Shown here: piece after piece, positions 41,988-45,765 of the stretch | Position numbering within the stretch: the first letter of the stretch is position 1 | Layout of the letters: each line of letters starts with the position of its first letter | Virus record (IMG/VR): IMGVR_UViG_3300030061_002247 | Location: 18,878-82,877 of that record | Source of the DNA: a virus | Length of the DNA: 64,000 bases | Direction: 5' to 3' (one strand) | The notes under the pieces: generated by a model | Seen by the model: only the letters and a program-made list of their open reading frames with translations | Told to the model about the DNA's origin: nothing | Databases searched by the model: none | Made by a program: the position numbers and the translations under genes

Positions 41988-42626
41988 ATGAGCAGACAAG
42001 ACCCCAGCGATAAATCAGAAATGAGACTGACAGGATTGATACTAACTCAGTCGGCTCTAGTGGGAGTTGCAATAGGCATCTACGATGCTGGATTGTGGCT
42101 ACCCGGAGGAACAGGAGCGAGCGAATACGTCAACGGAATGACATATGCTATGGGGGCATTGGCAATTCAGATTCTAGCATATTACTTGTTCAAGATGTTC
42201 TTTGAGGAGCAAATGCAAGAGAGAGTCAGAATGTCGGAAATGCAAAGACAGAGAGACTACCGCTTCAGAGAGCAGCAATTCAGTTACGACCAGCGTAGAG
42301 CAGACATGGAACTACGTATGCAGGAGATGACATTAGAGAAAGAACTGCTTTGGATGCAACAAAATCCCGGTAAGATGCCACCTTCAATGATGTCAAACAG
42401 CCAGTCTGGTATTTCAGGTCTAGGTGTTGACCTATTCAACACATCAAAACCACCACAACACACAGCAAATGTTACTGCTCCTCAGAGTTTTGGCTTAGAC
42501 TCCCTCGCAGACGAGATGCTACAAGAAACTGTTATTCCACCTAGAGACATTTCTAGTCAAACTATACGTTTGAAGAAGGATGGAACGCCAGACCTTAGAT
42601 ATACGAAGGGTAGTGGCAAGGTCTGA
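41988..42626 (+). CDS. two-TM membrane protein with coiled coil
   Basis: LTGLILTQSALVGVAIGIY and MTYAMGALAIQILAYYLF, then Q/E/R heptads. Confidence 0.75.
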   Translation: MSRQDPSDKSEMRLTGLILTQSALVGVAIGIYDAGLWLPGGTGASEYVNGMTYAMGALAIQILAYYLFKMFFEEQMQERVRMSEMQRQRDYRFREQQFSYDQRRADMELRMQEMTLEKELLWMQQNPGKMPPSMMSNSQSGISGLGVDLFNTSKPPQHTANVTAPQSFGLDSLADEMLQETVIPPRDISSQTIRLKKDGTPDLRYTKGSGKV

Positions 42627-42886
42627 TGGGTAGAATATTCAAGACACCTAAAGACGACTCGGTGGAGGAAACTCTACGGGCAATGCACCTCGCAAACACG
42701 GTTGACAACACATACGAATGGGGGGTTGGTTGGCTCAGGACAATTCTTGCATCTTTCGGTGCTGCTTTAGCAGTCAGTGCAATGGAGTCTTACACAGATT
42801 TCACTCTATGGGGTTGGACAGTCGAATGGTCATATCAACAAATTGAGGGCTTTGCTGATTGGCTATACTCTAAACTCCCTAATTAG
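42626..42886 (+). CDS. small membrane protein
   Basis: WGVGWLRTILASFGAALAVSAM; Trp-rich C-terminus. Confidence 0.7.
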   Translation: MGRIFKTPKDDSVEETLRAMHLANTVDNTYEWGVGWLRTILASFGAALAVSAMESYTDFTLWGWTVEWSYQQIEGFADWLYSKLPN

Positions 42887-42895
42887 GTGAGATGA

Positions 42896-43609
42896 ATGGT
42901 AGGTGGAGGAAGCGTACTCGTCGGTGTAGCCATATACGGACAACACCTCTACAATGCATGGAAACCGAGAAAAGTCGGTATTTACGGCACAAGCATGGTT
43001 GGGAAGACCACATTAGACCGCTACATGACCACACCCGGTGAGATGGAAGAGATATCAGAGGATGATAGAACAGAACACTTCAAACTAATCACTAGATACA
43101 TGTTGCCCAAACCGACTAGGAAGAGAATATCTTGGCAGGGCGAAAAGAGAGTGGTATACTCCGCAGACATAGGCGGGCAAGAGAGGTTCTGGAATCTGTG
43201 GATTGACGATATGGTGTCCAGACAGGTGGAGTGCGTCATGTACGTGTTCGATGACAGGGCTTTTGCTGGTGGACCTGAGGGTGCAGAGCAAGTTGCCGGT
43301 TTCAAGTACCTTGTAGATAGGCTCATCCAGAGAGATTACAGATACAGAACCCTCAGAAGCAGATGGAAGGGAAAGAAGTACACACCTAGGATGCTAATGT
43401 TGGTGGCTAATAAAGCGGATAGGTTCTTTGACAAGAAGGCTGCTGAACTCTGGCAGCAGAACAGAATAGGCGAACACAAGATATTCGACCCGTTCCGAGA
43501 TGACCTGATTAGATTGCAGAAAGCGAGGCTTCCCACAAAGCGTGCTTTCATGGCTACTCGTGTGGGTTGGAACGTCGAACCAACCCTAGTAGAACTCTTG
43601 ACCTCTTGA
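42896..43609 (+). CDS. Ras-superfamily (Arf/Rab-like) small GTPase
   Basis: G1 GTSMVGKTT, G3 DIGGQERF, G4 VANKAD, G5-like MATRVGWNV; hydrophobic N-terminus. Confidence 0.9.
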   Translation: MVGGGSVLVGVAIYGQHLYNAWKPRKVGIYGTSMVGKTTLDRYMTTPGEMEEISEDDRTEHFKLITRYMLPKPTRKRISWQGEKRVVYSADIGGQERFWNLWIDDMVSRQVECVMYVFDDRAFAGGPEGAEQVAGFKYLVDRLIQRDYRYRTLRSRWKGKKYTPRMLMLVANKADRFFDKKAAELWQQNRIGEHKIFDPFRDDLIRLQKARLPTKRAFMATRVGWNVEPTLVELLTS

Positions 43610-43644
43610 GTGACCTTTTTGATGTAGTAGGGTGTGCGACCTCT

Positions 43645-43830
43645 ATGGCTAAGGGTAAGACCACCACCACTCTCGTTCCAACAGGAGGGGGTAGTAATTC
43701 ACTTAGGACTACCATTCCCATGTGGATTGTGCAGCAATTTGGTATGACTGCTGGTAGCAAGGTAGAATGGCGATTATCTGCCGAAAATGGGCAAATGTCT
43801 ATTCATGTGACTCCTGCGGAGGGTGAGTGA
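43645..43830 (+). CDS. AbrB/SpoVT-like DNA-binding protein
   Basis: GGSNSLRTTIPMWIVQQFGMTAGSKVEW; start moved to MAKGK. Confidence 0.8.
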   Translation: MAKGKTTTTLVPTGGGSNSLRTTIPMWIVQQFGMTAGSKVEWRLSAENGQMSIHVTPAEGE

Positions 43831-44861
43831 TGGTAGGCGGCCTTTTAGACGTACCCGACAATATGTATCGCACAATAACGAGAACTCCGGTGCAAAACCA
43901 GAGTCTAAGCAACTTAAATGACGCAGCGATGCAGATGATGGCTCAACAAGGCAACCCACAATTCAATCAAGCGGCTATAATGGAACAGGCCATTGCACAG
44001 CAGCAGATGCAGCAGATAGCGGTTCAGAAGAATCTCGAAGTCCCGAAAGTAAACTTCTATCCTTCTAATCACCCAGACCCAAGAAAGGCTAGAAGAAAGG
44101 ACATCAAACAAGCATACAGACTACTCAAACCCACAAAGAGGACTCTTGTAGACCCAAGAAGGTGGTTAGGTAGTCCATACAGATACACCAAAGACAGCGG
44201 TGTTTGTGTGGTAGACGGCTGCAACGTCAAAGAACTAATCGAGCATGACAACCTATATTCGAGAATCACAGACGAAGAGACAGGAAGAAGCCTTTGGGAG
44301 ATGTACTGGCAGAACCCAATCTCAGGACAGACCGAGGCATTCTTAGCAAGAAGCGGTGTGACTAGCGGTAAGACTCTCAAGGGAACATACTGCCCTGAGC
44401 ATCTCCATCTCTACCACCTACTCTGCAAATGGGAGTCTGCTGAGGAGAAGGAGAATGAAATGAGACCAAGCAGATTCAGAGACAAAATGAAGAAAGGAGT
44501 CAGTCTAGTCACTATTCCAGTTTCCTCATTGCAATCGACCGAGCAGAAAGCACCAGACCTAGTTCAGAAGTACGAGCCTTTCTTCCAAGAGATAGAGAAG
44601 GACTCCAATAGAACAAGAGGTATCAACGTCTGGCACATTCCTAACCCAGAGACCGGTAGCAACGACATCACCATGGTGCAATTCGACATGAGAATGTTCC
44701 ATAAAGAGGCTCAAGAGCAGCAATTGGCTGCACAACAGGCATTCAACACCGTTCTCAACCAACAGGCTCAAACCTTGAACCCCGCTCCGACTATGCAAGC
44801 ACCGCCCCCGATAGTGCCTACGATAGCAACAACAGCAAATCCAGCAGAGGTGATACAGTGA
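43827..44861 (+). CDS. hypothetical protein with Gln-rich ends and central Cys/His zinc motif
   Basis: CVVDGC...YCPEH. Confidence 0.7.
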   Translation: MMVGGLLDVPDNMYRTITRTPVQNQSLSNLNDAAMQMMAQQGNPQFNQAAIMEQAIAQQQMQQIAVQKNLEVPKVNFYPSNHPDPRKARRKDIKQAYRLLKPTKRTLVDPRRWLGSPYRYTKDSGVCVVDGCNVKELIEHDNLYSRITDEETGRSLWEMYWQNPISGQTEAFLARSGVTSGKTLKGTYCPEHLHLYHLLCKWESAEEKENEMRPSRFRDKMKKGVSLVTIPVSSLQSTEQKAPDLVQKYEPFFQEIEKDSNRTRGINVWHIPNPETGSNDITMVQFDMRMFHKEAQEQQLAAQQAFNTVLNQQAQTLNPAPTMQAPPPIVPTIATTANPAEVIQ

Positions 44862-45499
44862 CATTAGGATTATCTAATCTAGGAGGTCAACAATCGTCAT
44901 CCACTCTCAGTTTAGGCGCTAGCCAGTCTAATGCTTTCGGCCAACAGCCTATGCAAAACGGGTATGCTCCTAATGCATACGGTACTTCTCCCTTGATGGG
45001 TGGCATTCTAGGGGGTGCAGGCATATCCCCCCAACAATACAACGCTCCAGTAGCCCCTCCTTCGGAGACTCAGATTCTAGCCTCGATGCTTGGCACAATC
45101 CAACCGATTGACAAGTTCATCGTCAGCCAGAACATGCCTGTCTTCATCGAGATGCTATCGAACATCACCACATTCTCCCTTCTCAATGTCTTGAAGAATG
45201 CATCTTTCACCATGGACGAGGAGACTGGTAGTCTCTCACTCGATGTGACTTCAATGCCAAGCGACCTACAGACTCTAAGTGCCGAGAACATCATAGCACA
45301 ACTCAATAGTCTACAGAACACTTCCATGCAGATAATTCAACAGGCAGAGCAAGAGAGACAGCAGATACTACAGATGGCCGACCAATCACTGATGCAGGGC
45401 ATGTTGAACACAGCACTGGCTGACCCCGGCATGATGGAGTCAGTAGGGCAAGCCACTGGTGGCTTCATCAACAGAGCACTATTCGGGGGCAGAGTATGA
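44858..45499 (+). CDS. Gln/Met/Gly-rich hypothetical protein
   Basis: Low-complexity N-terminus, coiled coil, amphipathic C-terminus. Confidence 0.7.
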   Translation: MTLGLSNLGGQQSSSTLSLGASQSNAFGQQPMQNGYAPNAYGTSPLMGGILGGAGISPQQYNAPVAPPSETQILASMLGTIQPIDKFIVSQNMPVFIEMLSNITTFSLLNVLKNASFTMDEETGSLSLDVTSMPSDLQTLSAENIIAQLNSLQNTSMQIIQQAEQERQQILQMADQSLMQGMLNTALADPGMMESVGQATGGFINRALFGGRV

Positions 45500-45765
45500 T
45501 GTCAGGACCAAGTAGCAGAGGTTCACTTCCTCTGGGAGTGCCGAACCAAGTGGCCAACTTGTCGTTAAACATGTTCTCGCACAAGAGAAGCGTGATTATC
45601 GACATGGTGATGATTCAACTCATCAGTGCGATACTCGTTATGCTCTTCGTCTTGGTGTTCAAGGCTGCTGATATCAGTCAGACAGACGCTTCGATGGCCA
45701 TGATTGCCATCTTTATATCAATGATGGGCCTCGGTACGATATACACCAGAATAAGTCGGATGTAA
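45496..45765 (+). CDS. two-TM small membrane protein (holin-like size and topology)
   Basis: IIDMVMIQLISAILVMLFVLVF and AMIAIFISMMGLGTIY. Confidence 0.7.
   Translation: MMSGPSSRGSLPLGVPNQVANLSLNMFSHKRSVIIDMVMIQLISAILVMLFVLVFKAADISQTDASMAMIAIFISMMGLGTIYTRISRM

Follow-up and report, generated by a model that had tools for sequence, protein, structure and literature searches.

The question raised by this locus is what a small Ras-type GTPase, encoded among genes for small membrane proteins, does for a tailed virus of marine archaea. The DNA analysed here, which we call the window, is the last 64 kb (64,000 nucleotides, positions 18,878 to 82,877) of the 82,877-base IMG/VR record IMGVR_UViG_3300030061_002247, which is estimated to be 77% complete. 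Seven open reading frames (ORFs), here g1 to g7, fill positions 41988–45765 of the window, and the third of them encodes the GTPase. The initial annotation of this DNA had nearly all of them abutting, and all seven do lie abutting on the plus strand; neighbours overlap by 1–4 nucleotides or sit 9 nucleotides apart, and the gaps outside the block are 53 and 48 nucleotides. The ratios of nonsynonymous to synonymous substitution (dN/dS) against close relatives are 0.01–0.15 for six cassette genes (g4 was not computed) and for the flanking gene g8, and these low values argue that the ORFs are real genes and not chance ORFs. We propose, tentatively and with somewhat less than even confidence, that the cassette forms a virus-specific operon and that the divergent GTPase at its centre works like a membrane switch of the Arf/Sar type.

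The GTPase gene (g3; 42896–43609, plus strand) encodes 237 amino acids. The protein has an N-terminal helix at residues 4–22 and two insertions, one within switch I and a polybasic one lying between helix 3 and strand 5. The G1, G3 and G4 motifs, the hydrophobic N-terminus and the basic insert that the initial annotation had listed are all present in the translation. In an alignment of 20 members spanning 28–87% identity, G1 (GTSMVGKTT) has G31, G36 and K37 at least 90% conserved. G3 and switch II (DIGGQERFWNLW) have D91 and G94 invariant, W102 at least 90% conserved and R109 also kept. G4 is NKAD, and NK.D occurs in all non-truncated aligned members except one with NKAL. For G5, the window clade has MAT and distant members SA; before strand 2 in switch I (G2), most members have a Thr or Ser, and two have His or Arg. 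The polybasic insert RYRTLRSRWKGKK, residues 146–158, is conserved, and the hydrophobic moment of the N-terminal 18-mers lies at 0.26–0.54 in each of the 20 sequences, including two fragments. dN/dS values of 0.028–0.067 against close relatives show the GTPase to be under strong purifying selection.

The AlphaFold model of the GTPase (predicted local distance difference test, pLDDT, 89.9; predicted template modelling score, pTM, 0.86) places helix 4–22 before strand 1, shows switch I lengthened by about 13 residues and puts the basic residues on a helix–loop–helix insert. With Foldseek the model matched 1369 PDB chains (E ≤ 0.001); Rab10, Rap1, Rab1 and Ras head the list, with a top E of about 1e-8, and the target template modelling (TM) scores are 0.51–0.69 over the best 50 of the 1369 chains. 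A single-sequence search against PDB sequences gave 0 matches. With a profile of the family, the best solved relatives were the Asgard protein GerdArfR1 (8oun_A, E 1.2e-5) and Arl8A/B (E 2e-4 to 4e-3). These profile alignments span the helix–strand 1–P-loop region and DxGGQ...W, so that in switch II the DxGGQ and the Trp at +11 are aligned to those of Arl8 and GerdArfR1. In the protein atlas, Pfam Arf is assigned to 17–67% of the members of the nearest named clusters. By its predicted fold and its nucleotide-binding motifs the 237-amino-acid protein is a GTPase of the Ras superfamily (TRAFAC class), and it is very probably a real GTP-binding switch.

Sequence searches place this GTPase in a closed, virus-only and very divergent family. 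A set of 5.8 billion proteins holds 495 homologs at E ≤ 0.001; the 120 listed of these are 71–86% identical to the window protein, and six of the 120 are named 'GTPase SAR1 family protein' by JGI. Among 1.84 billion representatives at 50% identity the family comprises 77 clusters, and none of the clusters aligned is a canonical cellular GTPase. A tblastn search of 50,697 GenBank phage records, a set from which near records may be absent, gave no match to the GTPase or g5. We also searched 81 genomes of the host order, which are incomplete samples, so that a negative means not found among the genomes searched. The viral GTPase profile matched one of the 81, on the viral contig itself, and no host homolog of the viral GTPase is detectable in these sampled genomes. 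The ArvB marker PF09846 was found in 0 of the 81, and the same search was positive in Haloferax and Methanosarcina controls.

The cassette is part of the core of the magrovirus lineages sampled. The initial annotation had named synteny in relatives as a check on its reading, and the genes are indeed colinear in 74–80 of 80 IMG/VR loci found via the GTPase (g3, g5, g6 and g7 in 80, g1 and g2 in 79 each, g4 in 74). The flanking genes g8 and g10 are likewise present in 80 of 80. Because loci found via the GTPase are biased by the query, a second sampling was made via the large terminase, giving 80 loci of which the 41 with at least 9.5 kb upstream were counted. Here the GTPase is found in 41 of 41, and g1, g2, g3, g5, g6 and g7 occur together in 40, the one miss being cut by the locus edge. 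Median identities over the 41 loci are 81.4% for the terminase, 73.4% for the GTPase, 66.7% for g2, 62.6% for g5, 52.8% for g6, 50.7% for g1 and 47.9% for g7; the GTPase is the best conserved gene of the cassette. In 43 loci the cassette sits 8.1–9.7 kb upstream of the large terminase gene.

More distant loci were compared by tblastn, ORF reading and pairwise BLASTP. The cassette order is kept in the clade at 36% identity, on a 106-kb Poseidoniales contig (L086), and a g6 homolog is present in L085 and L086. For a second terminase clade we had 68 loci, 20 of them with at least 9.8 kb upstream; the GTPase lies within this flank in 13 of the 20, and in the five of the other seven that were examined in whole records it lies just past the edge (5/5). 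In a third clade (L181–L184, four loci) the GTPase is 32–36% identical, the cassette comes after a chaperonin gene and different membrane proteins follow it. Homologs of the GTPase and g5 are clear in 4/4 of these loci and a weak g1 homolog is seen in 3/4; a small transmembrane protein and Gln-rich proteins are also encoded there. The clades P0128 and P0165 had no IMG/VR loci. Overall, g5 stands alongside the GTPase in 80/80, 5/5 and 4/4 loci, and from the clade comparison we therefore take the constant core to be the GTPase and g5, embedded among small membrane proteins. As an observation apart, the chaperonin gene just upstream of the cassette is of group II (thermosome-like) and lies at 3250–4785 in L181 and at 2820–4481 in L184. 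After the cassette, L181 encodes a protein of 808 amino acids (8317–10743) and smaller ones (10748–11233 and 11611–12354) with C-terminal hydrophobic anchors and Gly/Arg-rich tails.

The membrane-protein surroundings that had been claimed for the GTPase correspond to three neighbours with hydrophobic segments, g1, g2 and g7. The first, g1 (41988–42626, plus strand, 212 amino acids), has two N-terminal hydrophobic helices, with hydrophobic 19-mers at 14–32 and 54–72, followed by a charged helical, coiled-coil-like region and a Gln/Met-rich tail. Two such segments at a Kyte–Doolittle hydropathy (KD) of at least 1.2 are present in 55 of 73 family members, and g1 belongs to no Pfam, PHROG, NCBIfam or PADLOC family. 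The Trp-rich g2 (42626–42886, plus strand, 86 amino acids, six Trp) has one central, moderately hydrophobic helix, which 69 of 70 members show as a single segment at KD ≥ 1.2, and a conserved N-terminal motif, RIF...DDS.E.TLRAMH. The small g7 (45496–45765, plus strand, 89 amino acids) has two predicted transmembrane helices, at 37–55 and 65–83, and a C-terminus that is short and basic; 69 of 72 members have both segments at KD ≥ 1.6. The likeness of g7 to holins is one of topology only; it matches no Pfam family and no holin family, and the Pfam scan, which covered 19 window ORFs, found no endolysin neighbour.

The remaining genes of the cassette encode proteins of other kinds. The gene g5 (43827–44861, plus strand) encodes a Cys/His protein of 344 amino acids with a Gln-rich N-terminus, in which C127, C189, P190, H192, H194 and H197 are invariant among 17 sequences. 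It has 723 homologs, none of them named, and its look-up in the protein atlas was empty. The product of g6 (44858–45499, plus strand, 213 amino acids) is rich in Gln, Met and Gly and helical in its C-terminal half. Between the GTPase gene and g5 lies g4 (43567–43830, plus strand, 87 amino acids), which the initial annotation had called AbrB-like. The SpoVT/AbrB-like resemblance holds, in a gene found in 74 of the 80 loci; the match to MazE_antitoxin/AbrB (PF04014; E 8.5e-4, 19.7 bits) is below the cut-off of 24.7, and g4 is absent in L085, L086, L181 and L184. It is an accessory insert outside the conserved core. Its start is probably at the internal ATG at 43645, because relatives align only from residue 27. 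For none of the cassette genes did searches of PHROGs, NCBIfam and PADLOC yield a usable match.

A putative promoter box, GGCTTATGATA, lies upstream of g1 at 41942–41952 on the plus strand and has a single exact match in the window, and a Shine–Dalgarno-like GAGGTCA follows at 41976–41982 (plus strand), ahead of g1. Across 66 distinct upstream regions from relatives, the box columns AA...TTA...TG are at least 80% conserved. When one mismatch was allowed, the box GGCTTNTNATA was not enriched in the window (13 found against 9.0 expected). The conserved box and the tight coupling of the genes fit the boundaries of an operon; the box, the GAGGTCA before g1 and the position in the late arm would fit a late operon. 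A scan with models of sigma-70 promoters and terminators, which are not relevant to archaea, gave results at chance level. The metatranscriptome run X20 has fragments 85–99% alike over parts of 40000–48000, which are contigs of relatives; they were not counted as expression because the library also contains a 71-kb contig.

By analogy with Arf, Sar1 and ArvA, we infer the following membrane steps, targets and role of g5. In its GTP state, the GTPase would be recruited to the cytoplasmic side of the host membrane by helix 4–22 and the polybasic insert 146–158. Once docked, it would organise or gate the co-encoded g1, g2, and g7 or its substitutes, and g5 would be an effector or regulator of the GTPase. 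The output would be a late action on the host membrane, which seems most likely because the operon shares its strand and arm with packaging and head genes. The odds are slightly below even that the GTPase works at the membrane in concert with its neighbours. That the output is egress or the timing of lysis is possible and, on balance, unlikely.

Several observations weigh against this proposal, and one group of them concerns the likeness to Arf. The window GTPase has no match to Pfam Arf at E ≤ 1, and 9 of the 20 members have a weak one (best E 0.0048, with one listed score below the cut-off). Pfam Roc is matched in 12 of the 20, more often than Arf; the window GTPase itself gives E 0.0035 with Roc and E 0.021 with TIGR00231, both below cut-off. 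Foldseek ranks Rab and Ras first. When the profile was compared by hhalign with three ArfR-like and three Rab-like proteins from an Asgard metagenome-assembled genome (MAG) that contains a mis-binned viral copy, the ArfR probability was 96.2 (score 64.4) against 95.8 (61.7) for Rab-like. A Pfam Arf search of the same MAG listed 40 matches. Membership in the Arf family is thus not shown by these profile scores, which are not above the family threshold and are nearly equal for ArfR and Rab-like proteins. Given the near-equal scores and the weak Pfam Arf matches, the family is therefore filed in the Ras superfamily with Arf/Sar-like features and no subgroup, and the earlier label 'Arf/Rab-like' survives as a resemblance.

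Other points on this side concern the switch itself, g5 and the coherence of the cassette. The 'catalytic Gln' that the initial annotation noted after DxGG is confined to the window clade; in distant members the residue is His, Glu, Ala or Asp. The N-terminal helix is modelled at pLDDT 59–78, its amphipathicity is moderate and it may do no more than pack against the G domain. The His residues of g5 are not retained in L184, the g5 model has a pLDDT of 62.7 with no significant Foldseek matches, and the Pfam scan of g5 gave no ArfGAP or ArvC signature. In close relatives the whole late arm is colinear, and synteny alone is therefore no proof of a functional unit. The junction between the GTPase gene and g5 tolerates inserts, AbrB in the window and, at the equivalent place in one record of the second terminase clade (G083; L245 30–761, minus strand), a DNA methyltransferase-like gene with a DPPY motif. 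In the third clade g2 is borderline (E 0.010 to an L181 gene) and not detectably homologous, and g6 in L181 is an analogue by position and composition only. We also found no fused forms of the GTPase at 416–2000 amino acids, which is weak evidence.

A further-reaching form of the proposal would make the cassette the lytic or exit machine of archaeal tailed viruses, in which a GTP-timed Arf-like switch, docked on the host membrane, triggers the small membrane proteins to breach or remodel it. We consider this rather unlikely; if true, it would be an exit machine without counterpart in the holin–endolysin lysis of bacteriophages. Among the rival explanations, the first, itself improbable, is a cytosolic regulatory switch. 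Together with g5, the GTPase would control the timing of head assembly or DNA packaging or act in it as a chaperone; its polybasic insert would be a nucleic-acid binder, and the membrane proteins would be neighbours without a part in it. The spacing of the cassette to the large terminase gene, the equal synteny of the late genes g8 and g10 and the conservation of the polybasic insert all speak for it. Set against these are the L181–L184 loci, where the cassette follows the chaperonin gene and precedes other membrane proteins instead of g8, and the presence of three to four membrane-protein neighbours in every clade. We also know of no small Ras-like GTPase in tailed-virus assembly.

Two further readings keep the cassette at the host surface or membrane and are both improbable. 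The GTPase might build a membrane-bound site of assembly or replication, recruiting the Gln/Met-rich N-terminus of g5, g6 and the tail of g1 into a condensate or scaffold with no role in exit. The low-complexity Gln/Met/Gly-rich segments of g1, g5 and g6, which have counterparts in L086, L181 and L184 and co-occur with membrane anchors, would suit this; composition alone is weak evidence, however, and nothing in the literature examined points to condensates or factories for tailed viruses of archaea. Marginally less probable is host takeover or superinfection exclusion, with the envelope (receptors, archaella, vesicle release) altered against competitors or to change host physiology. Exclusion modules typically consist of small membrane proteins and a regulator, as here, and since the ArvB marker was found in none of the 81 genomes of the host order, a GTPase from the virus might fill a gap in the host. 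Variability is usual for exclusion genes, however, and the cassette is a slowly evolving part of the core; a search with 5027 defence-system models also gave no match. A pseudo-GTPase that binds nucleotide without switching and serves as a structural adaptor would explain the variable residue after DxGG (Q, E, H, A or D) and the switch I Thr that is not invariant, but it is very improbable given that G1, G3, G4 and G5 are kept over 28–87% identity and that most members have Gln or His at the catalytic position, as Arf and Sar1 do.

The proposal of an Arf/Sar-type membrane switch belongs to a virus whose type and host can be described from the rest of the window. A Pfam scan of window ORFs found a large terminase (51370–52851), a portal (54073–55809) and a prohead protease (62467–63870), and the virus is therefore a tailed virus. 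Gene orientation switches from minus to plus at about 35.7 kb. Relatives of the virus are marine contigs of 85–115 kb, and the window stretch is found in DNA runs of marine metagenomes from 11 studies. The virus and its relatives, including the chaperonin-bearing clade, fit the description of magroviruses given in PMC5434244. The contig of 106 kb (L086, G001 C2) is in a Candidatus Poseidoniales single-cell genome and carries a terminase at 45% identity as well as the GTPase. This contig with its terminase and cassette is a direct virus–host link, or else a provirus or an infecting genome.

Some side observations concern the host assignment and the flanks of the cassette. Short magrovirus contigs (L082–L085) are binned into Promethearchaeati, Maricaulis and Parvibaculum MAGs, with four genome matches; these placements are probably mis-binning, which could mislead host assignment. 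Upstream of the cassette, the ORFs at 40243–41019 and 41368–41934 encode very basic proteins, with matches to DUF6321 (E 7.7e-16) and to PHROGs 6437/23735 of unknown function. Directly after the cassette lies g8 (45814–46491), whose product of 225 amino acids has CxxC pairs and a helix-turn-helix match (HTH_20 at E 9e-5, below the cut-off). This gene is kept in 80/80 relatives and in the clade at 36% identity, and a role as a regulator or as a small terminase is conceivable.

PMC5434244 counts magroviruses among the most abundant surface-ocean viruses, and PMC10791045 calls the players in the lytic egress of archaeal tailed viruses uncharacterised. A core, slowly evolving and apparently virus-only GTPase tied to membrane proteins offers a concrete gene set for this question of archaeal egress. 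Our literature search found no publication on a magrovirus GTPase, and none on a Poseidoniales virus GTPase by title. No word that begins with 'GTP' occurs in the main text of PMC5434244, PMC10160649 or PMC11706807; their supplementary tables may list a GTPase annotation.

As a comparison with known systems, holin-type lysis cassettes likewise have a small two-helix protein with a basic C-terminus, as g7 is, in a late operon near the packaging genes. The cassette differs from them in that no endolysin partner stands beside g7 and g7 matches no holin family, and to our knowledge no known holin system contains a GTPase. The ArvA/OapA system with ArvB and ArvC, as described in PMC10927574, also has a small GTPase with an N-terminal hydrophobic helix that acts on an archaeal membrane. 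Its operon, ArvABC, joins a GTPase, a small protein and a Cys-containing protein (PMC10927574), as does the cassette. By contrast, g4 and g5 match neither OapB (PF09846) nor a Pfam Zn-ribbon at E ≤ 1; ArvA itself was compared by description only.

Within the Ras superfamily, the top Foldseek matches of the viral GTPase are Rab, Ras and Rap proteins (Rab10 at 7e-9, Rap1 at a TM score of 0.66–0.69), and its hhalign alignments with Asgard Rab-like proteins cover 171 columns, including G4 and G5. Unlike Rab and Ras it has no C-terminal prenylation-type tail and has the N-terminal helix instead, and its identity to the top-listed Rab and Ras structures is 13–17% (12–20% over the best 50 rows). All 50 viral structure matches listed are Rab-like GTPases of giant viruses of eukaryotes, a different kind of virus and host, and the family would add a prokaryotic-virus branch to the Ras superfamily. 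With the Arf family (GerdArfR1, 8OUN/8OUM, and Arl8) the viral GTPase shares the N-terminal helix followed by strand 1 and the P-loop, DxGGQ with the Trp eleven residues past the Asp, and NKxD. Its identity to Asgard ArfR is about 28% over 123 aligned profile columns, and it differs from the Arf family in the roughly 13 extra residues of switch I and in the polybasic insert. The hosts of the viral GTPase are of the Euryarchaeota type, for which bioRxiv 10.1101/2024.02.28.582541 reports no ArfR. In ArfR itself the N-terminal helix is described there as required for membrane binding.

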